Part shown: piece after piece, positions 18,368-43,656 of the stretch
Numbering within the stretch: position 1 is the first letter of the stretch
How the letters are laid out: each line of letters begins with the position of its first letter
Source of the DNA: a bacterium
GTDB lineage: Bacteria > Patescibacteriota > Minisyncoccia > 2-02-FULL-40-12 > IGHO2-12-FULL-4
Direction of reading: 5' to 3'
Assembly (NCBI GenBank): GCA_030695705.1
Contig: JAUYPS010000048.1
Span: forward strand, 1-43,721
DNA length: 43,721 bases
The notes under the pieces: model-generated
What the model was told of the DNA's origin: nothing
Database searches by the model: none
Seen by the model: the letters and a program-made list of their open reading frames with translations, nothing else
Translations under genes and position numbers: made by a program

Positions 18368-18397
18368 TTGACGAGGGTGGGTCTGATTTGGTATAAT
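18368..18397 (+). promoter_or_regulatory. Near-consensus sigma70 promoter for the glycine-zipper gene
   Basis: TTGACG (18368-18373), an 18-nt spacer, then TATAAT (18392-18397), about 100 nt upstream of the ATG at 18496. Confidence 0.55.
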
Positions 18398-18426: not shown

Positions 18427-18467
18427 GTTACACGGCAGCCCTGTGCAACACAGGGCTGCCGTGTAAC
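18427..18467. repeat. Family C palindrome, copy C1 (perfect 19-bp arms) in a 5' UTR
   Basis: gttacacggcagccctgtg-caa-cacagggctgccgtgtaac. The terminal 14-mers match the copy inside holA (31540-31579) at 13/14. It lies between the promoter above and the RBS aaggag. Confidence 0.8.
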
Positions 18468-18495: not shown

Positions 18496-19257
18496 ATGAG
18501 AAAGATGGTTTTGATTGTTTTAATGTTTTTGGCGGTTCCGGTTTCGTCTTTCGCCCAGCACCGTTATTTGGGTGAGGGCGGGGCAAAGATTCTGCAATGC
18601 GCTCGGTTTTACTCTTCGCTCGAGGCACAACTGCTTTGCGCGAGAGGGGACGAGCTTTCGGCCGGCCAGATCGAAAGATTGGGCCTGGTCGATCGAAACG
18701 AGCGCATCGGTCAGTACGGTGGGAATTACGGCTATAACGGCGGGGACGGGTATTTTTACCCCACCGATTCCTACGGCCGACCGACAGGCACCCGCGAGCG
18801 GATTGTGACAGGTGGCGCCATTGGCGCATTACTTGGCGCAGGAGTTGGCGCAATCTTCAACCGAGGTGGCACTGGCGCATTACTTGGCGCAGGTGCTGGC
18901 GCAGTGGTTGGCGTAATCTCCGGCTCCAAAGCTGGCAAGAGGGCCAAGCAAGAAGCGCAGGTGCGGGAAACTCAATACCGTGCTGAGACGCAGGCCAGAG
19001 CCGAAGTTCAGCAGCAAGTCGCCGAGGAATCCCAACAGATTCCTCTAGTCATTCGAAATACAACCGGCTTCACGGCTCGATTGTATCAGGATGACAGGCG
19101 GGTTCGTGATCTCCGCCCGGGCCAGTCGTTTTCCGGTCCGGAAGCAGAGTACCGGGCCGAGCTGCGGGTTCCCGCTCGCGGCGGTTATGTGGAATTGGTC
19201 GAAGCGGAGCTTCGACCCCACGAGAGAGGGTGGGACATCGTCCCACCGAAGTTCTAG
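18496..19257 (+). CDS. Secreted glycine-zipper protein
   Basis: Signal peptide MRKMVLIVLMFLAVPVSSFAQ. Duplicated glycine-zipper segments GGAIGALLGAGVGAIF and GTGALLGAGAGAVVGVISG, also visible as a nucleotide repeat ggcgcattacttggcgcagg. Gln/Arg/Ala-rich coiled segment. Confidence 0.7.
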   Translation: MRKMVLIVLMFLAVPVSSFAQHRYLGEGGAKILQCARFYSSLEAQLLCARGDELSAGQIERLGLVDRNERIGQYGGNYGYNGGDGYFYPTDSYGRPTGTRERIVTGGAIGALLGAGVGAIFNRGGTGALLGAGAGAVVGVISGSKAGKRAKQEAQVRETQYRAETQARAEVQQQVAEESQQIPLVIRNTTGFTARLYQDDRRVRDLRPGQSFSGPEAEYRAELRVPARGGYVELVEAELRPHERGWDIVPPKF

Positions 19258-20745: not shown

Positions 20746-20848
20746 AAAAATTTGCACAAAAAAAGCAAATTAGCCCGAAAACACTGACTTGCTTAAATTT
20801 GGTTTGTGGATAAAAAAATTGTAATAGTTGGCGCCTGTTATATAATAA

Positions 20849-27238: not shown

Positions 27239-29899
27239 ATGAAAAAGTTAATTTTAATCGACGCCAATGCTCTTGTTCACCGGGCTTTCCACGCTTTGCC
27301 TCCGCTTACTTCTCCGGAAGGAATGGTGGTCAATGCCGTTTACGGATTTACCTCGGTTCTAATCAAAGCGATTAAAGACATGAAGCCGGACTATATGGCG
27401 GCGGCCTTTGATTTGGCCGGGCCGACTTTCCGTCATGAGGAGTTTGAGGAGTACAAAGCGCATCGCGAAAAAGCGCCCGATGAACTTTATGCCCAGATTC
27501 CGGTAATTAAAGATATGCTTCGCTCTTTCGGGGTGGAAATATTTGAGCAGGCCGGATTTGAGGCCGACGATTTGATCGGTTCGGTGGCGGAAGAAGCCAA
27601 GAAAGTCAAAGATTTACAGACGGTCATCTTGACGGGGGACTTGGACACTCTTCAGCTGGTGGATGACGAAAAAGTGCTGGTTTTAACTTTGCGCAAAGGA
27701 GTGAGTGACACGGTTTTATACGACGAGAAAGCGGTTAAAGAGCGATACGGCTTAGAACCGTATCAGGTTACTGATTTTAAGGGACTGAAAGGCGATCCAT
27801 CCGACAACATTCCCGGCGTGTCCGGAATCGGAGACAAAACCGCCACGGCTTTGCTTCAAGAATACGAAACTATCGAAAATCTTTACAAAGTTATCCACAC
27901 GCCAGGTTGGACCTTGCAGAAGGGGAAGGGGGTGTTGACGGTTAAATTAGTTGAAAAACTTAAGGAACATCAGGAACAGGCCATTTTCAGTAAACGGCTG
28001 GCGACTATAATTCGGGACGTAAAAATTAATTTTTCCTTGGCGGGAATTGACTGGCAGAACAAGTTCAATCGGGAAGAAATTGTCAGGTTACTGAAGGGTC
28101 TTGGGTTCCACAGTATTTTGCCGCGCTTGAACAATCTTGGCGTCGGTCCGGAACCGGAAGCAGTTGTGCCTGTCCAGATTGGTTTAGAACTGGAAAACAA
28201 AGCAGATCCTAAGTTACCTGTTAAAGCATGCAAAAATGAAAAAGATATTAACGAATTTCTCGATAAATTAAAGCCGGACCAGCCAGTTTATATTTACTAC
28301 AGTGAAAATAACTTCTATTTTTTACAAAGTTATCCACATGCCAGGTTGGACCTGGTAAAGGTGCCGGTTAATTTGATAAAAAATCTCCGGTCATTTTTCG
28401 AAGATGAACAAATACCGAAAAGGGGATATAACTTAAAACCTCTGATTAAAGTACTTCTCGACCACGGCATTCATTTAAAAAATTTGGATTTTGATATTGC
28501 CGTGGCTGCTTATTTGTCGCGGTCTGAAACGCGTGACTATGAGATTGATAAAATTTATTTTACTGAATTTGGCCAGTCGTTATCCGACGGCCCCTTGGCG
28601 ACCATAACCGCTTTGCCCAAATTATATGATGTCTTTTGGGATAAACTTAAGACAAAAAACTTAAATAGGGTTTTTCAGGAAGTTGATCTGCCTTTAGTGC
28701 CGGTGTTGGCTGAAATGGAAAGAAACGGAATTAAAATCGATTTGGATGGCCTAAAGACCCTTTCTCAAAAAGTCGAAAAGGAAGTTATTAAATTAGAGAA
28801 AGAGATTTATAAAATGGCCGGTGAGGAATTTAATATCAGTTCCCCCCAGCAGCTGGGCAAAATATTATTTGATAAACTGCTTTTAAAAACCAAAGTGCGC
28901 AAGACGCTGGGAGGAGCGCGGTCTACTGCTGTCTCTGAACTGGAAAAACTAAGAGACGAACATCCGATTATTGAATTAATTATTCAATATCGCGAATTGC
29001 AGAAACTCAAGACCACTTATATTGAGCCGTTTCCTGTTTTGGTTAATGCCAAGGACCAGCGTCTCCACACCACTTACAATCAGATGGGTACGGTTACCGG
29101 CCGGCTTTCCAGCCAGGATCCGAACCTACAGAATATTCCTATTCGGACTGAGTTGGGCCAGGAATTTCGCCGGACTTTTGTAGCGGAAGACGGTTACGAA
29201 TTAATTTCCTTAGATTATTCCCAACTTGAACTTCGCATTGCCGCTTTTTTATCCGGCGACCAAAAAATGCTTGATGCTTTCAGAAGAGGAGAGGATATTC
29301 ATACCCGCACGGCGGTGGAAATTTTTGAAGTTTCTCCGGAAAAAGTCACCCCCAATATGCGGCGCGAAGCCAAGGCGCTGAACTTTGGCATTTTATACGG
29401 CATGGGGGTTTTGGGATTTGCCCGTTCGGCGGGAGTGGATCGTTTGCGGGCTAGGGAATTTATTACCAAATATTTCAAGGAATTTTCAGGAATGGCCCGC
29501 TATATTGAGCATCTGAAAGAACAAGTCAGGAAAAATGGCTTTGTAGAAACATATTTCGGACGACGAAGGGAGTTGCCGGAAATTAATTCCGGTCTGCCCC
29601 AACTGGTAGCCCAGGCGGAAAGGATGGCTTCCAATGCCCCTATTCAGGGCACGGAGGCGGATATAATGAAACTGGCCATGATTAAGGTTTATGATTACGT
29701 TCATGCCGGTCATTTAGAAAGTGAAGCTCGCATTTTGCTTCAAGTCCACGATGAGCTATTATGTGAGGTGAAAGAGGAGAAAGCTCGGGAATTATCCTTA
29801 AAATTCAAGGAAATCATGGAGAAGGTCTGGGAGGTAGATGTGCCGATTATTGTTGACGTTAAAATAGGTAAAAACTGGGCGGAAATGAAAAAAATATAA
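27239..29899 (+). CDS. polA: DNA polymerase I
   Basis: 886 aa. 5'-nuclease domain (LILIDANALVHRAFHAL; GDPSDNIPGVSGIGDKTA). Polymerase motifs DYSQLELRIAAFLSGD, RREAKALNFGILYG and QVHDELL. Confidence 0.97.
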   Translation: MKKLILIDANALVHRAFHALPPLTSPEGMVVNAVYGFTSVLIKAIKDMKPDYMAAAFDLAGPTFRHEEFEEYKAHREKAPDELYAQIPVIKDMLRSFGVEIFEQAGFEADDLIGSVAEEAKKVKDLQTVILTGDLDTLQLVDDEKVLVLTLRKGVSDTVLYDEKAVKERYGLEPYQVTDFKGLKGDPSDNIPGVSGIGDKTATALLQEYETIENLYKVIHTPGWTLQKGKGVLTVKLVEKLKEHQEQAIFSKRLATIIRDVKINFSLAGIDWQNKFNREEIVRLLKGLGFHSILPRLNNLGVGPEPEAVVPVQIGLELENKADPKLPVKACKNEKDINEFLDKLKPDQPVYIYYSENNFYFLQSYPHARLDLVKVPVNLIKNLRSFFEDEQIPKRGYNLKPLIKVLLDHGIHLKNLDFDIAVAAYLSRSETRDYEIDKIYFTEFGQSLSDGPLATITALPKLYDVFWDKLKTKNLNRVFQEVDLPLVPVLAEMERNGIKIDLDGLKTLSQKVEKEVIKLEKEIYKMAGEEFNISSPQQLGKILFDKLLLKTKVRKTLGGARSTAVSELEKLRDEHPIIELIIQYRELQKLKTTYIEPFPVLVNAKDQRLHTTYNQMGTVTGRLSSQDPNLQNIPIRTELGQEFRRTFVAEDGYELISLDYSQLELRIAAFLSGDQKMLDAFRRGEDIHTRTAVEIFEVSPEKVTPNMRREAKALNFGILYGMGVLGFARSAGVDRLRAREFITKYFKEFSGMARYIEHLKEQVRKNGFVETYFGRRRELPEINSGLPQLVAQAERMASNAPIQGTEADIMKLAMIKVYDYVHAGHLESEARILLQVHDELLCEVKEEKARELSLKFKEIMEKVWEVDVPIIVDVKIGKNWAEMKKI
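27890..27928. repeat. Family B element, copy B3 (inside polA; right arm decayed)
   Basis: gttatccacacgccaggttggaccttgcagaag... shares tttacaaaGTTATCCACA-GCCAGGTTGGACCT with copy B4. It is translated as VIHTPGWTLQKGKG. Confidence 0.6.
28329..28367. repeat. Family B element, copy B4 (inside polA, different reading frame; right arm decayed)
   Basis: gttatccacatgccaggttggacctggtaaaggtgcc..., translated as SYPHARLDLVKVP. Confidence 0.6.
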
Positions 29900-30870
29900 T
29901 GAGTCATAAAGCAAAAATTTTTATAATTGTTATGGTTGCTATTGTTTTAAGCATGATCGGAATAGTTTTTGGAACAAGAAATAATATTGAAATAGGAGGG
30001 GAATTGGCCGGCATGAGTTTGCCGGAGTCCGATCTATCCGGAGAAAGGTGTCAAAATGCCAAGCGGAGACCGGTAGCGGTCATGCTATCGTCTGATCCGG
30101 AAACCCGGCCTCTGTCGGGAATAGGAGAGGCGGATCTGGTTTTTGAAATGCCGGTGACCGATGGCGGAGTAACCAGAATGATGGCTGTTTTCCAGTGTGA
30201 ATTGCCAAGTGAAATCGGTTCAATCCGTTCAGCGCGGGAAGATTTTATTCCCTGGGTGCAGGGTTTGGGGGCGGTTTATGCGCATTGGGGAGGGGAGAAA
30301 GACGCTTTGAGCAAGCTTAACGGGGGAATTGTTGACAATATCGATGCCATGAAATACGAAGGGACTTATTATTACCGTAAAAATGACGTCCGTCCGCCGC
30401 ACAACGGCTTTACCAGTTTCCAATTGCTTGCCCAGGCCAGTGCCAAGTTGGGATACAACTTAGAAAAATCAGCCACCTCTTACAAGCACGAAAAGGGAAA
30501 AAGTTTAGAAATAACGGACCCCCCAGCTCTTTATGAAGGTAACTTTTCTGTGCAGTGGAGGTATCAGCAGGACAGTAATACTTATCGGCGCTGGCGTGGC
30601 GGGAAAGAGGAAATAGATCACAATACCTCTAAACAAGTTGAGGTCAGCAATGTGGTCTTACTAAAAACAACTTGGTCACCGATTAGCAAGGATTACATTA
30701 ATGTGAAAACAATCGGCTCCGGAGAAGCGGTTATTTATAAAAATGGAGAAGCGGTTAACGGCACTTGGGAAAAAAGAACCGCCACCGACTCCCTGGTTTT
30801 TTACGATTCCACCGGCCAGAAAATTAAATTCACCATCGGCGCTATCTGGATCGAAACCTTGATTAAATGA
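29899..30870 (+). CDS. DUF3048-family secreted/membrane-anchored protein
   Basis: N-terminal TM anchor. RPVAVMLSSDPETRPLSGIGEADLVFEMPVTDGGVTRMMAVFQ and PPHNGFTS match my memory of DUF3048. The start overlaps the polA stop (TAATG). Confidence 0.78.
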   Translation: MSHKAKIFIIVMVAIVLSMIGIVFGTRNNIEIGGELAGMSLPESDLSGERCQNAKRRPVAVMLSSDPETRPLSGIGEADLVFEMPVTDGGVTRMMAVFQCELPSEIGSIRSAREDFIPWVQGLGAVYAHWGGEKDALSKLNGGIVDNIDAMKYEGTYYYRKNDVRPPHNGFTSFQLLAQASAKLGYNLEKSATSYKHEKGKSLEITDPPALYEGNFSVQWRYQQDSNTYRRWRGGKEEIDHNTSKQVEVSNVVLLKTTWSPISKDYINVKTIGSGEAVIYKNGEAVNGTWEKRTATDSLVFYDSTGQKIKFTIGAIWIETLIK

Positions 30871-31760
30871 CCCTCTCACTCTATTATGGAACGGATAGTT
30901 TTCGAGTTAAGGAAGCAGTAGAGAAAAAGGCCGCTTCTTTTTTGGCTAAATACAAAGACGGTTTGGTGGAGAGGTTGGATTTTGAGAAGGAAAATTGTCT
31001 GGAAGAAGTGGAAAATATTTTGAAAAGACGCTCTTTTTTCAATGAGCCGGAATTAATAATCGTTTATGCCCATATTTCCGCCAAGGACTTGCCAAAAAAG
31101 AATAAAAAACTTTTTGAACTTTTAACCAAGAAAGCGGAAGAAACAAAAGAATTTGAAAGCATCAAAGGATCTGCCTTGGAAAAGTGGGCTTTGGAGAAAA
31201 TAACCCAAGCCGGTTTTAGCATAAAATCACTGGCTCTAAAAAAACTGATTCTTCGAGTTGTTTCGCAAGGGCAGTTGTCCCAGGAAATTGATAAGCTGAT
31301 CGCTTACCAAAGTTATCACGGCAAAAAGGAAATAGACGACCAAGCCCTAGTTATCCACTTACCAGGTTGGACCTGGAATGTGGATAACTTTGCTTTGATT
31401 GATGCTATTGGGTCTCGCGATATTAAAAAATCAGTAGCGCTTTTAAACCAAACCTTGGCTGATGGTATGGAGCCGCATGCTGTTTTGGGCCAAATTATTT
31501 ACCAATTCAGAAATTTGTTGAAGGTAAAGAGTTACACGGCTGCCGTGTATATACACGGCAGCCGTGTAACTGTCGAGAATATTGCTAAGCTAACCGGTCT
31601 GCATCCTTTTGTCGCTCAAAAAACCAGCCGACAAGCCAGACAGTTCGAGTTAGAAGAATTAAAAAAGGCCTATCGGTATTTATCGGAACTGGATATAACA
31701 TCAAAAACCGGCCAAGTTGATTTAACGGCCGGTTTGTTTCAGCTTTTATTGCAAATTTAG
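30867..31760 (+). CDS. holA: DNA polymerase III delta subunit (HolA-like), carrying two palindromic insertions
   Basis: 297 aa. The N-terminus LYYGTDSFRVKEAVEKK and overall layout are typical of short HolA proteins. The start overlaps the upstream stop (ATGA). Confidence 0.7.
   Translation: MTLSLYYGTDSFRVKEAVEKKAASFLAKYKDGLVERLDFEKENCLEEVENILKRRSFFNEPELIIVYAHISAKDLPKKNKKLFELLTKKAEETKEFESIKGSALEKWALEKITQAGFSIKSLALKKLILRVVSQGQLSQEIDKLIAYQSYHGKKEIDDQALVIHLPGWTWNVDNFALIDAIGSRDIKKSVALLNQTLADGMEPHAVLGQIIYQFRNLLKVKSYTAAVYIHGSRVTVENIAKLTGLHPFVAQKTSRQARQFELEELKKAYRYLSELDITSKTGQVDLTAGLFQLLLQI
31350..31388. repeat. Family B palindrome, copy B2 (39 bp = 13 codons, in frame inside holA)
   Basis: gttatccacttaccagg-ttgga-cctggaatgtggataac, with 2 mismatches in the 17-bp arms. 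Translated as VIHLPGWTWNVDN. Confidence 0.85.
31540..31579. repeat. Family C palindrome, copy C2 (perfect 20+20 bp, inside holA)
   Basis: gttacacggctgccgtgtat|atacacggcagccgtgtaac. Translated as (S)YTAAVYIHGSRVT. Confidence 0.85.
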
Positions 31761-39165: not shown

Positions 39166-40784
39166 TAAGCAAATATTCCGACCTTTCTGATAGAAAGGAA
39201 AGGTTTTTATATCGTTTTTTTGAGATTCTCCCCGGAGGGCTGGCTTGGGGCACTTTAGTTTTGATTATTATTGGATCGTTTCTGGTTCCTGTTTGGATGG
39301 CCATTTTTATCATTATCTTTGACATCTATTGGTTGATAAAAACCGTTTACTTATCCTTTCACCTCAATCATTCTTTTAGGAAGATGAGGAAGAATATTTC
39401 TACGGATTGGCTTAAAAAGTTATCAGAACTGCCGACCCAAGATTATCAGTTGAAAACTGTAAAATCTTGGCAGGATATTTATCATCTTATTATTCTGCCT
39501 CGCTACAAAGAAAGCATAGAAATCGTGACGGCTACTCTCGAGGGATTGATTCGTTCTGATTACCCTAAAAATAAAATGATCGTAGTGCTTGGGCAAGAAG
39601 AAAGAGCCGGCCAGCAAGCCAATAGCATTAAAGATTATCTGGAGAAAGAATACGGGCACCATTTCTTTAAATTTTTAATAACTGAACATCCGGCCGACTT
39701 AGCAGGGGAGTTGGCGGGAAAAGGTTCAAACGCTTCTTTTGCCGCCGAACAAGCCAAGGCGCAAATAATTGATCGTTTGAGTATTCCGTACTCGAACATC
39801 ATTGTTTCTAATTTTGATGTTGATACGGTAGTACCGTCGCATTTTTTTTCTTGTCTGACTTGGCATTATCTTACTACCCCCGATCCTTTGCATGCTTCTT
39901 ACCAGCCGGTGCCTTTTTTTGTAAATAACATTTGGGAGGCCCCGGCTTTTGCCCGGGTCTTTGCTTTTTCAACCACTTTTTGGCAAATGATTCAGCAGGC
40001 CCGTCCAGAGCAGCTGGTAACTTTTTCCTCCCAGTCGATTAGTTTCAAGGCCTTAGTGGAGGTCGGTTTCTGGCAGCGCAACATGGTTTCCGAGGATTCG
40101 CGAATTTTTTGGCAATGTCTTTTGCATTATGACGGTAATTGGCGGACCGTCCCTCTTCACTATCCGGTTTATATGGATGCCAACGTGGCGCCGACTTTTT
40201 GGCAAACCCTGAAGAATCAGTATAAACAGATTCTTCGTTGGCATTTTGGGGCGGAGAATAATCCTTACTTCATGTTTGGATTTTGGAAAAACAAAAAAAT
40301 CCCCGGGAGTTTGAAACGCTATTTCATTTGGACCATGGGAGAAAAAACCCATTCTAGCGCCACCAATGCCTTAATTATTTTTTTGCTTGGCTGGTTGCCT
40401 TTACTGATGGGTGGCTCTGCTTTTAATCAAACCGTTTTATCTTTAAATCTTCCTCACTTTACCCGTAATATTATGTTATTGGCGATGTTGGGGTTGATTT
40501 CTTCCGCTGCTATTTCTGTTATTTTTTTACCTCCTCGGCCGCCTAACTACGGACGCTTCAAGTGGGTCTGGATGTTTTTGCAGTGGATTTTATTTCCCAT
40601 TAACTTTATATTTTTCGGGGCTGTCCCTGCGCTTGATGCCCAGACTCGTTTGATGCTTGGCAAGTATCTTGGCTTTTGGGTAACACCGAAAGTTAGGAGC
40701 AATCGTAGTATTGAAAAAGACCCTGCAATCAGCTATTCTCCGGTAACAGAGCACCTTGAAAATAAGGAGAACGGAAATGGTTGA
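39150..40784 (+). CDS. Multi-pass membrane family-2 glycosyltransferase (processive, cellulose-synthase-like)
   Basis: 544 aa. N- and C-terminal TM helices, IILPRYKESIEIV, FDVDT, VSEDSRIF and the Q(Q/R)xRW-type motif QILRWHFG. Confidence 0.8.
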   Translation: MDYTKLSKYSDLSDRKERFLYRFFEILPGGLAWGTLVLIIIGSFLVPVWMAIFIIIFDIYWLIKTVYLSFHLNHSFRKMRKNISTDWLKKLSELPTQDYQLKTVKSWQDIYHLIILPRYKESIEIVTATLEGLIRSDYPKNKMIVVLGQEERAGQQANSIKDYLEKEYGHHFFKFLITEHPADLAGELAGKGSNASFAAEQAKAQIIDRLSIPYSNIIVSNFDVDTVVPSHFFSCLTWHYLTTPDPLHASYQPVPFFVNNIWEAPAFARVFAFSTTFWQMIQQARPEQLVTFSSQSISFKALVEVGFWQRNMVSEDSRIFWQCLLHYDGNWRTVPLHYPVYMDANVAPTFWQTLKNQYKQILRWHFGAENNPYFMFGFWKNKKIPGSLKRYFIWTMGEKTHSSATNALIIFLLGWLPLLMGGSAFNQTVLSLNLPHFTRNIMLLAMLGLISSAAISVIFLPPRPPNYGRFKWVWMFLQWILFPINFIFFGAVPALDAQTRLMLGKYLGFWVTPKVRSNRSIEKDPAISYSPVTEHLENKENGNG

Positions 40785-41421
40785 AAGAACTCCGGAAATT
40801 AAACAAGTTACGATCGATTTTTATAACCGGTTTTGCTATCAATACTGGGAAAGGCATCCCAATGCGCCGGTAAAGTCGATGGAAAAATTCGCCAAAATGC
40901 TGCGGGGTCCGAATATTCTTGATTTGGGATGCGGGGGCGGACACTCGGCGGTATTTAAAATGATGGGTATAAAGCTTGGTCTTGGTATGCATTTGAATCC
41001 TATCGCAGCAGATATTAGTCCCATTATGTGTCTGGCGGCAAAACAAAAAGGCGGTTTGCCAGCTGTGGTAATGGACCAGGAAAATCTTTGTTTTAAACCG
41101 AACAGCTTTGACGGAGCATGGTTATCGAAATCGCTCCTTCATTCTCCTTCGGAAGTCGTGCCGGGGATTCTGGCCGATCTACGGCTGATCCTAAAACCTC
41201 GGGGCGTTCTTTTCCTCGGCATGCAGGCGAGCATCGGACAGTATATAGAAACTGAACTAAAAACAACCGAGATCGGCACTAGGTACTATTGTTATTGGCC
41301 GACTTATCGCTTACACGGCCTGCTGGAAACTTTAGGTTTCGCAGTGGAGGAGCTGTCTATTCACGGCAAGGACTCCTTAAATAAGAGAAATTACTTCGAA
41401 ATTTTCGCTGTTAAGGAGTAG
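40777..41421 (+). CDS. Class I SAM-dependent methyltransferase
   Basis: ATG at 40777 after RBS aaggag, overlapping the GT2 3' end by 8 nt. Motif I ILDLGCGGGHSA and post-I/II regions are present. Confidence 0.8.
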   Translation: MVERTPEIKQVTIDFYNRFCYQYWERHPNAPVKSMEKFAKMLRGPNILDLGCGGGHSAVFKMMGIKLGLGMHLNPIAADISPIMCLAAKQKGGLPAVVMDQENLCFKPNSFDGAWLSKSLLHSPSEVVPGILADLRLILKPRGVLFLGMQASIGQYIETELKTTEIGTRYYCYWPTYRLHGLLETLGFAVEELSIHGKDSLNKRNYFEIFAVKE

Positions 41422-41422
41422 A

Positions 41423-41461
41423 GTTATCCACATCCCAGGTCCAACCTGGGATGTGGATAAC
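41423..41461. repeat. Family B palindrome, copy B1 (perfect 17-bp arms), acting as a hairpin between convergent genes
   Basis: gttatccacatcccagg-tccaa-cctgggatgtggataac. The loop is inverted relative to the holA/polA copies. It starts 2 nt after the methyltransferase stop and touches the recG stop codon. Confidence 0.8.
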
Positions 41462-43656
41462 TATTCGAAGTGGCGGATTTTTTGGAATTGGGCCAGTTGA
41501 TTTTTGAGTAAAGGATAAGATGATAATCCCGGATCTTCTTTAAGTAAAAGCTTGGCTTCTAACCGGGCTTTTTTTATTAATTCTAAATCAGTCAGAGAGG
41601 CCATAGCCAGATCCGGCATTCCGGATTGTTTGTTTCCGGTAAATTCTCCCGGTCCGCGTAATTTCAAGTCCTCTTCAGCTAACTGGAATCCGTCTTCACA
41701 ATTTTCCAAACATTTGAGCCGTTTATTTTCGAAGCGATTATCTCCGCCGTTGACCAAAAGGCAGGAGGACTGATGTTCAGCGCGTCCGACTCGCCCGCGG
41801 AATTGATGAAGCTGGGCCAGGCCAAATCTTTCCGCATTCTCAATTAGCATGACCGAAGCGTTGGGGATATCGACACCCACTTCCACTACGGAAGTGGAGA
41901 CCAGAATGTCGTAAAAGCCGTTTTTGAATCCGGCCATTATTTTTTCTTTTTCTTTTGGTTTCATTTTTCCGTGAAGCATGGCAATTTTAAACTGCGGAAA
42001 AATCTTTTTAGAAAGCTTTTCGTATTCTTCGGTGACGGCTTTTACTTCCGACCAAAGCACATTCATTTTGTCTTTGCCGTTTTTGGCTTTTATTGTTTCT
42101 TGGGGGTTAGCCAGTTCAATGCGGGGACAGATTACAAAGATCTGCCGGCCAGCTTTTATCTCTTTTTCCAGAAATTGATAGGCCTTTTGTTCCTGATTTT
42201 TTGCAATTACTTTAGTCGTAATTTTTTTGCGATTTTTTGGTTTTTCTTTAATCAAAGAAATATCCAGATCTCCATAAATAGTTAGGGCCAGAGTGCGGGG
42301 GATAGGAGTGGCCGTCATACTCAAGAGATGCGGAACGTGGGCGGAGTTTTTAAGCAGAGCGGCCCGCTGTTCAACTCCAAATCGATGCTGTTCATCTAAA
42401 ATTGCCAATCCTAGTTCTTTGAATCTGACATCTTTTTGGATAACTGCATGCGTGCCGATTAAAATCCCGATTTCTCCTTTGGCAATTTTTTCTTGCATTA
42501 TTTTCTTGCTTACTTTTTTCTCTAGACCGTTACGGCTAAATCGGGCCTCACTTCCGGTAAGTAGCCCAATTACTAAACCAGGCAAGTCAGCCGTATGCCC
42601 ACTCGAAAATTCCCGAGCGACAAGTCGAGGGTCGAGAGTGGGTGGTATGGCTGATTTGCCTAATAAAGAAGTTATTGTGCCGAAGTGTTGGCGGGCCAGA
42701 ATCTCGGTCGGAGCCATAAAGACCGCCTGTTTTTTTTGGCGGGCTGTTTGGTAAGCAGCTGTTAAGGCCACCACGGTTTTACCAGAGCCAACGTCTCCAT
42801 TCAAAAGACGGTTCATGGGGTATTTTTTTTCCAGATCTTTTAGAATCTCAAAGGTCGCTATTTTTTGGTCGCCGGTCAGTTCAAAGGGCAAAGAATCAAC
42901 AAAACTTTTTACTTTTTGCGGTTCAAATTTTATGGGGACAGATTTTAGCTGCAAAGCTTGCCGGCGACTGGCAATTGATTTTAATTGGAATAAAAATAAT
43001 TCCTCAAAAGCCATTCTTTGTCTTGACTGTTTTGCCTCTTCTGGAGAATCCGGGAAATGGATACTTTTGACGGCGGAATTAAGTGAAGGGAAATCATATT
43101 TTTCTAGAACGTGTTTCGGCAAGGGATCAGATGAAATGTCCACAGCAGATAAGAGGGGCTTTATTAAAAAACGGAGATATTTAGAAGTTACTCCTTCTGT
43201 TTCCGGGTAGACCGGAACAAGTCGGCCGGTATGAGTCGGAAAGTTAGAGGTGAGTTTTTCGTAAGCGGGATTAGAAAGGTATAATCCGTGCTTATCTAAA
43301 GATGTTTTTCCAGAAATACTGACCCGGGTCTCTAAAGGAAGGGAATTTTCCAGATAGGGCTGATTGAACCAGATCGCCCGCACCACTCCGCTGTGATCCT
43401 GAACGAAGGCCTCCGTTACCGATCTTCTGTGCCACAAAGAAGTTGTTTTTATTTTTATAATCTCTCCTTGCAGAGAAACTATTTCCCCGGGTTCACGGAT
43501 TTCTTCCGCCGGTACTTGCCGTCTATAATCTTCGTAGCGATGAGGAAAATGCCATAACAAACCCCTGACTGTTTCAATGCCGAGTTTTTTTAGGCGCGGC
43601 AAATTTTTTGATCCTACCCCGGAAAGTTTTTCGATGGGAGTATCGAGAGGAAGCAT
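41461..43656 (-). CDS. recG: ATP-dependent DNA helicase RecG, carrying an in-frame palindromic-element insertion
   Basis: 731 aa. N-terminus LSGVGSKNLPRLKKLGIETVRGLLWHFPHRYEDY, wedge domain, and helicase motifs GDVGSGKT, DEQHRFGV, MTATPIPRT and QLHQFRGRVGR. Confidence 0.95.
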   Translation of the reverse strand: MLPLDTPIEKLSGVGSKNLPRLKKLGIETVRGLLWHFPHRYEDYRRQVPAEEIREPGEIVSLQGEIIKIKTTSLWHRRSVTEAFVQDHSGVVRAIWFNQPYLENSLPLETRVSISGKTSLDKHGLYLSNPAYEKLTSNFPTHTGRLVPVYPETEGVTSKYLRFLIKPLLSAVDISSDPLPKHVLEKYDFPSLNSAVKSIHFPDSPEEAKQSRQRMAFEELFLFQLKSIASRRQALQLKSVPIKFEPQKVKSFVDSLPFELTGDQKIATFEILKDLEKKYPMNRLLNGDVGSGKTVVALTAAYQTARQKKQAVFMAPTEILARQHFGTITSLLGKSAIPPTLDPRLVAREFSSGHTADLPGLVIGLLTGSEARFSRNGLEKKVSKKIMQEKIAKGEIGILIGTHAVIQKDVRFKELGLAILDEQHRFGVEQRAALLKNSAHVPHLLSMTATPIPRTLALTIYGDLDISLIKEKPKNRKKITTKVIAKNQEQKAYQFLEKEIKAGRQIFVICPRIELANPQETIKAKNGKDKMNVLWSEVKAVTEEYEKLSKKIFPQFKIAMLHGKMKPKEKEKIMAGFKNGFYDILVSTSVVEVGVDIPNASVMLIENAERFGLAQLHQFRGRVGRAEHQSSCLLVNGGDNRFENKRLKCLENCEDGFQLAEEDLKLRGPGEFTGNKQSGMPDLAMASLTDLELIKKARLEAKLLLKEDPGLSSYPLLKNQLAQFQKIRHFE
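42572..42649. repeat. Family A palindromic element, copy A3 (78 bp, in frame inside recG, antisense orientation relative to the gene)
   Basis: gcaagtcagccgtatgcccactcgaaaattcccgagcgacaagtcgagggtcgagagtgggtggtatggctgatttgc. On the recG strand it is translated as (G)KSAIPPTLDPRLVAREFSSGHTADL(P). Confidence 0.9.

Follow-up and report, generated by a model that had tools for sequence, protein, structure and literature searches.

The stretch of DNA analysed here (the window) is contig JAUYPS010000048.1, 43,721 nucleotides in length, which is contig C19 of a Parcubacteria (Patescibacteria) assembly, G000, of 494 kb in 49 contigs with 43% G+C and a completeness of approximately 75%. The subject is its holA gene, which encodes the delta subunit of the DNA polymerase III clamp loader, and in particular two palindromes, B2 and C2, that are read in frame within it.

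30867..31760, plus strand: holA, clamp-loader delta subunit, 297 amino acids (open reading frame, Pfam, PDB profile and Foldseek)
31349..31389, no strand: B2, family-B palindrome of 41 bp (19+3+19 nucleotides), in the linker before the C-terminal domain of HolA
31530..31571, no strand: C2, family-C palindrome (21+21 nucleotides), at a helix end and loop in HolA

The open reading frame encodes the DNA polymerase III delta subunit. Its C-terminal domain, which begins at residue 175, matches Pfam family PF21694 (DNA_pol3_delta_C) with an E-value of 3e-24, and the protein gives a profile match to the B. subtilis delta subunit in the PDB (3zh9_B, E=6e-17). The AlphaFold model, with a mean predicted local distance difference test score (pLDDT) of 85, has the three-domain fold of the clamp loader and its best Foldseek matches are delta subunits (3zh9, 1jqj_C, which is the E. 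coli delta, 8giy_A and 1jr3_D).

The arms of B2 (31349-31367 and 31371-31389) flank a 3-nucleotide (nt) loop and are matched at 17 of their 19 pairs, with two mismatches. Codons 162-174 (31350-31388), from V162 to N174, are read as the peptide VIHLPGWTWNVDN. The arms of C2 (31530-31550 and 31551-31571) are 100% complementary with no loop between them and make up 14 whole codons, S222-T235, giving the peptide SYTAAVYIHGSRVT. The original prediction had correctly recognised holA, the two in-frame palindromes and both peptides. Its span for B2 (31350-31388, 39 bp) is that of the codons exactly, the palindrome itself being one nucleotide longer on each side. For C2 the palindrome is indeed perfect, though the position given, 31540-31579, is around 9 nt too high (the 40-mer quoted lies at 31531-31570) and the arms are of 21+21 rather than 20+20 nt; the gap between the two elements is 140 nt and not 150 bp.

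Neither B2 nor C2 is explicable by chance. The window contains six palindromes with arms of at least 16 nt, against none or one in each of ten Markov-1 simulations, and the 15-mer core of family C has eight matches in the window where 0.02 would be expected. The DNA hairpins have energies of -14.4 kcal/mol for B2 and -25.1 kcal/mol for C2, with z-scores of -7.2 and -10.3 relative to shuffled sequences. In the AlphaFold model, a means of placing the elements that had been suggested from the outset, residues 166-173 of B2 have a pLDDT below 50 and form a loop between helices 158-164 and 173-182, and C2 prolongs helix 203-230 before forming the loop 231-235 ahead of helix 236-243. Both are positions at which the length of HolA varies among orthologues.

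B2 and C2 belong to two families with further copies in the window, as had been predicted and as the location of the copies B1 and C1 bears out. A scan of the whole assembly gives approximately 15 full and 7 half copies of family B, and six double-copy loci and one single copy of family C, which makes around 22 loci for B and 7 for C over the 494 kb, with arms of 19 nt in B and 19-21 nt in C. The family-B consensus is A(G/C)TTATCCACATCCCAGGT-CCA/TGG-ACCTGGGATGTGGATAA(C/G)T, and eight full copies share an identical 37-nt core; a half copy comprises the left arm and the loop, followed by some 7 nt of right-arm sequence. Family C is made up of two adjacent units of ACA(C/G)GGC(A/T)GCC(C/G)TGT. 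Most copies of both families are in frame in genes with long open frames whose identity Pfam confirms, and often fall within the conserved domain, the hosts being PMT_2, PMT, GT1, FemAB, ComEC, the GIY-YIG domain of UvrC, TruB, Lnt, with two family-C copies, and HolB (delta'), with one. Two more hosts look like IleRS and DnaE by their motifs. Nine of the 12 genic B copies are read in the same frame, as (V/L)IHIPG(P/W)TWDVD, another is read in a second open frame, and two half copies use the frame that meets a TAA in the full copy. The other copies in the window are as follows.

41422..41462, no strand: B1, perfect consensus family-B copy (19+3+19), between the convergent open reading frames 40756..41421 (plus) and 41461..43656 (minus)
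18427..18467, no strand: C1, perfect 19+3+19 family-C copy in a 5' untranslated region (UTR), between a promoter-like site at 18368-18397 and the ATG at 18497
27889..27916, plus strand: family-B half copy in frame in polA, read as VIHTPGWTL, net +2 codons relative to the orthologue in the relative G004
28328..28355, plus strand: second family-B half copy in polA, in another frame, read as SYPHARLDL, net +3 codons relative to the orthologue in G001, a genome of the same genus

B1 occupies the whole of the 39-nt gap between the two convergent genes. It had been described as an intergenic terminator-like hairpin, of which the hairpin and its position stand; there is no T-tract and the terminator scan made no call there. 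C1 is a 5'-UTR hairpin as proposed, 30 nt downstream of the 11/12 promoter match at 18368-18397.

Elsewhere in G000 the peptide AIHLLENSRATSRGSRVGRMADL is found in frame in three unrelated proteins, a PMT_2 glycosyltransferase on contig C10, UvrC on C28 and a 447-residue membrane protein on C42. In truB (C21:7044-7110) and upstream of rplR (C23:15080-15132) the B half copies are followed by tandem duplications of approximately 19-21 nt of the loop/right-arm segment (GGTTGGACCTGGGAAAGAA twice and AGGTTGGACCTGGGATGATTA twice), which look like signs of replication slippage at the hairpins. Contigs C37 (6094-6235, 142 nt) and C47 (8243-8322, 80 nt) end in long perfect palindromes, that of C37 centred on a family-C copy, and these look like fold-back assembly artefacts. 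Many B copies lie 100-1100 nt from contig ends, so the B repeats probably break the assembly.

Outside G000 the exact families are rare. A search of 30 relatives gave no full B or C pattern, the B half pattern was not found in 104 other genomes of the order, the full B pattern was not found in the species-representative collection, and neither family was found in viral contigs. With a looser B pattern the species-representative collection gave one likely chance match in an actinomycete and one copy in a Ca. Harrisonbacteria metagenome-assembled genome (MAG), the latter a half copy (L061:4370-4420) in frame in a UvrD-like helicase gene and read as VIHIQGSTLYE. The 10-nt tail of this copy, GTGGATAACT, is directly repeated on either side of the inner hairpin, a layout absent from G000. 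Taken alone, this distribution would suggest a recent burst, but the orthologues of holA say otherwise.

In the comparisons that follow, L-numbers denote DNA loci of relatives and P-numbers HolA proteins derived from metagenomes. An alignment of HolA proteins, another of the checks originally suggested, reveals copies at the same codon in relatives with approximately 70% identity and empty sites in others. C2 is present at the identical codon in L019, L020, L021, L022, L049 and L050, which make up three C2-bearing sequence types and whose HolA is 70-72% identical to that of the window; the proteins P0001, P0002 and P0009, also 70-72% identical, have SYTAA(V/L)Y(L)(H/Q)GSRV at this position. 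Between lineages C2 is 92.9-97.6% identical, compared with 68-76% in the remainder of holA, where the third codon positions are near saturation (50-60% identical). All 11-13 codons of C2 that specify the same residue are the identical codon, against 49-63% elsewhere in the gene. The borders of C2 are the same in every orthologue (AAR followed directly by AGTTACACGG...GTGTAACT) and identity drops to the gene average directly outside them, so that no recent recombination tract is involved. Judged from these alignments, the perfect C2 is not recent. The original prediction had offered a choice between a very recent insertion of C2 and active maintenance of the hairpin; recency fails on the presence of the element at the same codon in such diverged HolA, and maintenance fits, with the qualification that the upkeep may be a mutational by-product, through arm correction or copy conversion, rather than the mark of a useful hairpin. 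The DNA of L019-L022, L049 and L050 comes from independent ENA and JGI assemblies, and finding the same palindrome at the same codon there is indirect evidence that B2 and C2 are not artefacts of assembly.

Where C2 has changed, its pairing has been retained. In L021 and L049 GCCGTGT/ACACGGC has become GCCCTGT/ACAGGGC, a double change which converts V/H to L/Q and leaves the palindrome perfect; the same variant occurs at another locus of G000, on contig C37. The B2 site is occupied in L019-L023 and L027. In L023, where holA is 88.8% identical in nucleotides outside the element, B2 is a perfect 19+3+19 palindrome that differs from that of the window at 8 of 41 positions, as four compensated pairs. 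This variant matches a subfamily (…ACGCAAGGT) found at other loci and so looks more like a swap than four compensations. L019-L022 retain the right arm and 7-9 bp of inner stem, and L027 retains an 8-bp inner stem with a compensated pair, the outer arms having decayed. The loop of B2 reads TGG in G000 and L023; L021 and L019 have CCA or CCG, which amounts to an inverted spacer at the same orthologous site. Counted over paralogous and orthologous copies together, 97.8% of cells are paired in family C, with both sides changed in 8 of 21 pairs, and 87% in family B, with both sides changed in 7 of 19; none of 500 shuffles reached the covariation score observed for B and C, and slid controls scored far lower. 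Neither element is present in holA of G001, P0004, P0005, P0007, P0010 or P0012.

Three of the sequences compared are unusual in themselves. The holA of L023 (ERZ28563803 scaffold) has a deletion and a frameshift past the C2 site, and that of L051 (Ga0209542_10036136) has most of the middle domain missing; both look damaged or chimeric. P0013 equals P0002 at both ends with a divergent middle without B2, and may be a mosaic allele or a chimeric assembly.

The elements, called inserts in the original prediction, do not simply add sequence. Net changes in length, measured between conserved flanking anchors in the alignments, are listed here.

holA, B2 (family B): 17 residues against 16 in empty orthologues, net +1 codon (+3 in L023)
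holA, C2 (family C): 13 residues replace 7 of the family norm, net +6 codons (+12 relative to G001, which has a shorter loop)
femAB (family B): net +6 codons
comEC (family B): net +9 codons
polA, site 1 (family-B half copy): net +2 codons
polA, site 2 (family-B half copy): net +3 codons
holB (family C): net +3 codons

It would seem from these alignments that the elements mostly overwrite native codons, in place of a plain addition of 13-14. Native codons of similar sequence often stand at the element ends, GTT AT.. and ..AAT AAC TTT in B2 and the FemAB copy being examples. The pattern may come from microhomology-guided replacement, from re-use of the remnants of older elements or from insertion followed by trimming. 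A target-site reading, insertion into TA or TTAA of ASTTAAST, was unsupported, the native sequence between the putative junctions being missing and not displaced. The same loops hold unrelated insertions in other lineages, as at the C2 site of L010, P0008, P0010 and P0012. In G001 different insertions of approximately 37 residues in holB (L036) and 13 in polA (L043) are found at the loops that bear the C copy and the B half copy in G000, that of holB including a segment that resembles a decayed B right arm (..TGGCCTCTGGATAATTT).

The nuclease SbcCD, whose presence had been raised as a point to check, appears to be lacking in this lineage. SbcD was not found in any of 31 genomes, G000 and 30 relatives (26 of them of high quality), and SbcC was not found in G000 at its level of completeness. 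A palindrome of 42 bp is, in addition, outside the sizes at which strong instability is seen in model bacteria such as E. coli. For both reasons the persistence of C2 inside an essential gene, which had been thought notable on the grounds that such palindromes are unstable, becomes less paradoxical. Exonuclease VII (ExoVII) was considered as a reason why template switching might be frequent, but its gene xseA occurs in G001 and has a patchy distribution in the order, which gives no basis for the argument.

Genes of the Y1_Tnp family, to which the transposases associated with repetitive extragenic palindromes (REPs), known as RAYTs, belong, were found in 12 of the 30 relatives, with four in G001. 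The NCBIfam model that fits them best is that of RAYT, with a score of 52 bits where the cut-off is 80. Six loci in the relatives G001 and G004 (L053-L058) have RAYT-like Y1 genes of 212-263 amino acids directly flanked by palindromes. That of G004 (L057) is bracketed on both sides by ACAATGGGCATCTTTGCAAGG.., of the same palindrome family as an orphan at C20:4695-4746 of G000. None of the Y1 genes examined in the 30 relatives is flanked by B or C. A hairpin beside a Y1 gene of G001, ..TATCCCGAGGT-TCA-ACCTCGGGATA.., was considered as the mark of a B-family enzyme and rejected; it looks B-like but is single-copy in G001. A connection of B and C with the REP/RAYT system is accordingly a lead rather than a result.

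The observations are accounted for most readily if B2 and C2 are members of two families of 41-42-bp hairpin repeats, resembling REPs in size and shape and the Rickettsia palindromic elements (RPEs) in their in-frame position within genes, that populate the genome of a Parcubacteria lineage. Both would have entered holA in an ancestor common to relatives whose HolA is now approximately 70% identical, largely by overwriting existing codons, and would since have been transcribed and translated, B2 contributing loop residues to the linker ahead of the C-terminal domain and C2 to a stretch between two helices of that domain. Symmetry would have been kept at the level of the DNA, either by correction of one arm against the other while the hairpin forms in replication (quasi-palindrome template switching) or by overwriting of an existing copy by another member of the family, and both routes may act. 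The hairpins themselves would presumably be of no use to the cell. A probability of around 0.55 is assigned to this reading, in which the repeats are old in holA and owe their lasting symmetry to correction between arms or to conversion from copy to copy. Some kind of upkeep would be needed for a palindrome to stay perfect at an old site. In a coding palindrome such as C2 third codon positions pair with first positions, so that, with symmetry enforced, every change is non-synonymous somewhere and none can drift freely, which helps to explain the near-identity across lineages. That the hairpins are not attacked would follow from the apparent absence of SbcCD. Template switching at quasi-palindromes is known to homogenise arms and to invert spacers (PMC8604942, PMC8794818, PMC7202029).

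Several observations weigh against this. Arm correction keeps symmetry and not sequence, so the 93-98% identity of C2 needs another factor as well; purifying selection on the loop peptide, a conserved master copy of the family and a sequence-specific reader would be candidates. L023, the nearest relative of the window for which there is DNA, is without C2, which requires the assumption of a single loss or of one additional gain. The holA tree, calculated with the inserts removed, is a star apart from the group of the window, P0003 and P0011, so that a single ancestral event is not provable; monophyly of the C2-bearing genes was considered and found no resolution in this tree. B2 of the window has two uncorrected mismatches, at least one of them apparently common to P0011, a 91% identical relative (VIHL...), which implies that correction is neither fast nor universal. 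Neither PF01797 (Y1/RAYT) nor PF13358 (DDE_3) nor PF01609 (DDE_Tnp_1) was found in the 75%-complete G000, where tblastn with the Y1 proteins of the relatives also gave no match; there is no Y1 gene in the Harrisonbacteria MAG that bears the B half copy, and no enzyme is tied to either family.

A bolder version, in which hairpin-directed copying, by a RAYT-like enzyme or by polymerase template switching with other copies of the family as template, keeps replacing loops of essential proteins by whatever version of each family is current, and in which the B arms are true DnaA boxes forming a chromosome-wide DnaA-binding network, is a speculative one and probably does not hold. If it did, part of the sequence of HolA, HolB, PolA, DnaE and other proteins of these reduced genomes would be set by a DNA repeat system and not by evolution at the level of the protein.

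It is also conceivable that the hairpins are selected for a use in the cell, B as inverted DnaA boxes, C as the site of a DNA-binding protein, or either as messenger RNA (mRNA) structure at the domain borders of HolA. The functions would then be DnaA titration or replication control for B, as in DnaA-box clusters of the datA/DARS kind, and slowing of the ribosome or stabilisation of the message for either element. Each consensus B arm contains the exact DnaA-box 9-mer TTATCCACA, a candidate box by sequence match, and G000 has 49 perfect boxes, compared with approximately 5 expected in 494 kb, 33 of them within B copies. All five of the B2-bearing relatives L019-L023, including those with a decayed left arm, have preserved the box in the right arm of B2, and G001 has three boxes, one of them perfect, in the 180 bp just past its dnaA domain match (the assembled contigs of G000 include neither dnaA nor oriC). 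Set against this, the box is decayed in L027 (CGTGGGCAA) though the inner stem is kept, and L019-L022 have lost their left-arm boxes. A DnaA box in the end of IS50 serves Tn5 transposition, a precedent that would let such boxes serve the element and not the host. The sequence of C2 itself, beyond its symmetry, is conserved across the diverged lineages, as given above, and the predicted RNA hairpins are very stable, at -23.3 kcal/mol for B2 and -37.5 kcal/mol for C2. However, many close relatives, including G001 of the same genus, have a holA without either element, so neither is needed for holA; copies are scattered over unrelated genes, UTRs and gaps, the loop facing either way, and share no position with respect to starts or domain borders; and there is no Rfam family match for B or C, with nothing near threshold. 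The dyad within each C arm is broken in three of six copies while the pairing of arm to arm is still perfect, on which ground C as an operator of two 15-bp dyads (two dimer sites) was also rejected. On balance a selected cellular use seems unlikely. In the window itself the DnaA-box 9-mers are at 20805, 22770, 27891, 28330, 31379, 41424 and 41452, and the 16 boxes of G000 that lie outside B copies are possibly decayed B remnants.

Upkeep of any kind would be unnecessary if the families were active mobile elements of the type of REPs, RPEs or MITEs (miniature inverted-repeat transposable elements), with a strong preference for certain targets and an independent recent insertion at the same permissive holA loops in each lineage, C2 being perfect simply for being young. 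The eight B copies with identical core suggest recent spread, the families were not found in the 104 other genomes of the order or, apart from the one MAG, in the species set, the orthologous B2 copies differ in subfamily variant and loop orientation, and the C2, holB and polA loops host different insertions elsewhere. Y1 transposases of the IS200/IS605 kind are moreover target-specific. With some six C copies per genome, however, a repeated hit on one and the same nucleotide of a single gene in three or more lineages is very unlikely, the borders of C2 are identical in all of them, and the graded decay of B2 in L019-L022 and L027 marks age; no target-site duplication is seen around the copies, the net changes in length fall far below that of an element, and no transposase was found in G000 or the Harrisonbacteria MAG. 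This explanation is accordingly judged quite improbable. Still less can be said for an origin on the spot, in which native holA sequence outside any mobile family was duplicated locally in inverted orientation or extended as a hairpin. The empty C2 site of L051, CCCGCTGCCGAT, has 8 nt in common with the C core GCTGCCG, native codons resemble the ends of B2 and of the FemAB copy where these meet them, and template switching can extend inverted repeats (PMC13100816). The census of the families has already largely refuted it: a local origin cannot explain the same 37-41-nt sequences at more than 20 (B) and 7 (C) unrelated loci, and the net gains differ from the length of one arm. A chimera assembled from fold-back reads is the least credible of all. 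The terminal palindromes of C37 and C47 are what such reads would leave, but B2 and C2 lie mid-contig, measure 41-42 bp and keep the frame of an essential gene open, and the independent ENA and JGI assemblies of related organisms have the same elements at the same codons.

Among known systems the RPEs are reportedly dispersed, in frame in housekeeping genes, where they are translated as extra surface segments, and present also in non-coding DNA, with no transposase in view. B and C resemble them in being palindromic and dispersed in a small genome, in frame in many genes as well as in non-coding DNA, with no transposase found. Open frames are likewise kept in holA, polA, holB, uvrC, comEC, femAB, truB, lnt and others, so translation is predicted. 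The differences lie in size, RPEs being approximately 100-150 bp and adding a whole peptide segment where B and C are 41-42 bp with a net +1 to +9 codons, and in fate, the identity of RPE repeats being lost with time whereas C2 is perfect across HolA of approximately 70% identity, even with a compensated change. The host phylum also differs.

With REPs and REPINs, the hairpin arrangements of REPs, and their RAYT (Y1, HUH) transposases (PMC3116915, PMC3337134, PMC3733652), B and C share the 20-40-bp scale of the hairpin, the stable stem-loop, the presence of several unrelated families per genome and the occurrence of half and doubled forms, and the RAYT-like genes directly flanked by palindromes (other than B/C) in relatives of G000 add to the likeness. 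REPs are, however, extragenic by definition and present in hundreds of copies, whereas B and C are mostly intragenic with approximately 7-23 copies, and the conserved GTAG/CGTC tag (PMC3733652) was not found at the ends of B or C. The B ends are A(G/C)TTATCC, with GTAG preceding B1 only, and the C copy in contig C11 is CTAC...GTAG, the remaining C copies ending in GTAA or GTAT. No RAYT was found in the incomplete G000, nor was one seen flanked by B or C. MITEs, with their terminal inverted repeats and target-site duplications, differ in that B and C are inverted repeats throughout, with no direct duplication of the flanks in 15 copies and neither DDE_3 nor DDE_Tnp_1 in G000.

The coding palindromes of Nematomorpha (PMC6649704) are likewise perfect inverted repeats in functional coding genes that are gained and lost between species, and their perfection, which is all or none, is ascribed by the authors to active conversion or template switching and not to function. 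The same authors regard them as maintained by conversion and possibly parasitic, and contrast them with the decaying Rickettsia elements. They differ from B and C in being local and unique, up to 284 bp long, and in having conserved protein encoded by both arms, whereas B and C are dispersed and encode loop residues. Template switching at quasi-palindromes (PMC7202029, PMC8604942, PMC8794818) predicts the homogenised arms, the compensated multi-nucleotide changes and the inverted spacer seen at B2 and C2; as a mutational mechanism and not an element family it explains neither their spread nor the conservation of their sequence. The literature search found no paper on REP-, RAYT- or RPE-like repeats in Patescibacteria or the candidate phyla radiation (CPR).

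What is added here is the orthologue evidence for long-term perfect symmetry in an essential gene, together with the compensated variants, the loop inversion, the pattern of overwriting at seven sites and the apparent absence of SbcCD. REP-type repeats are by definition extragenic, and in the classic intragenic case, that of Rickettsia, the elements are longer and decay, whereas B and C are short, lie in core replication and repair genes, keep their symmetry and replace codons. If the upkeep is mutational, they would form a natural record of processes at the level of the DNA fixing part of the sequence of an essential protein, and would provide a test bed for quasi-palindrome correction beyond E. 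coli and yeast. For annotation, such segments can mimic conserved motifs, break assemblies and mislead alignments of marker genes in Patescibacteria.

Apart from the two elements, HolA of the genus to which the window belongs is without approximately 32 residues of the N-terminal domain, between V66 and Y67 (30867-31100, compared with the family-level relatives L003-L012).

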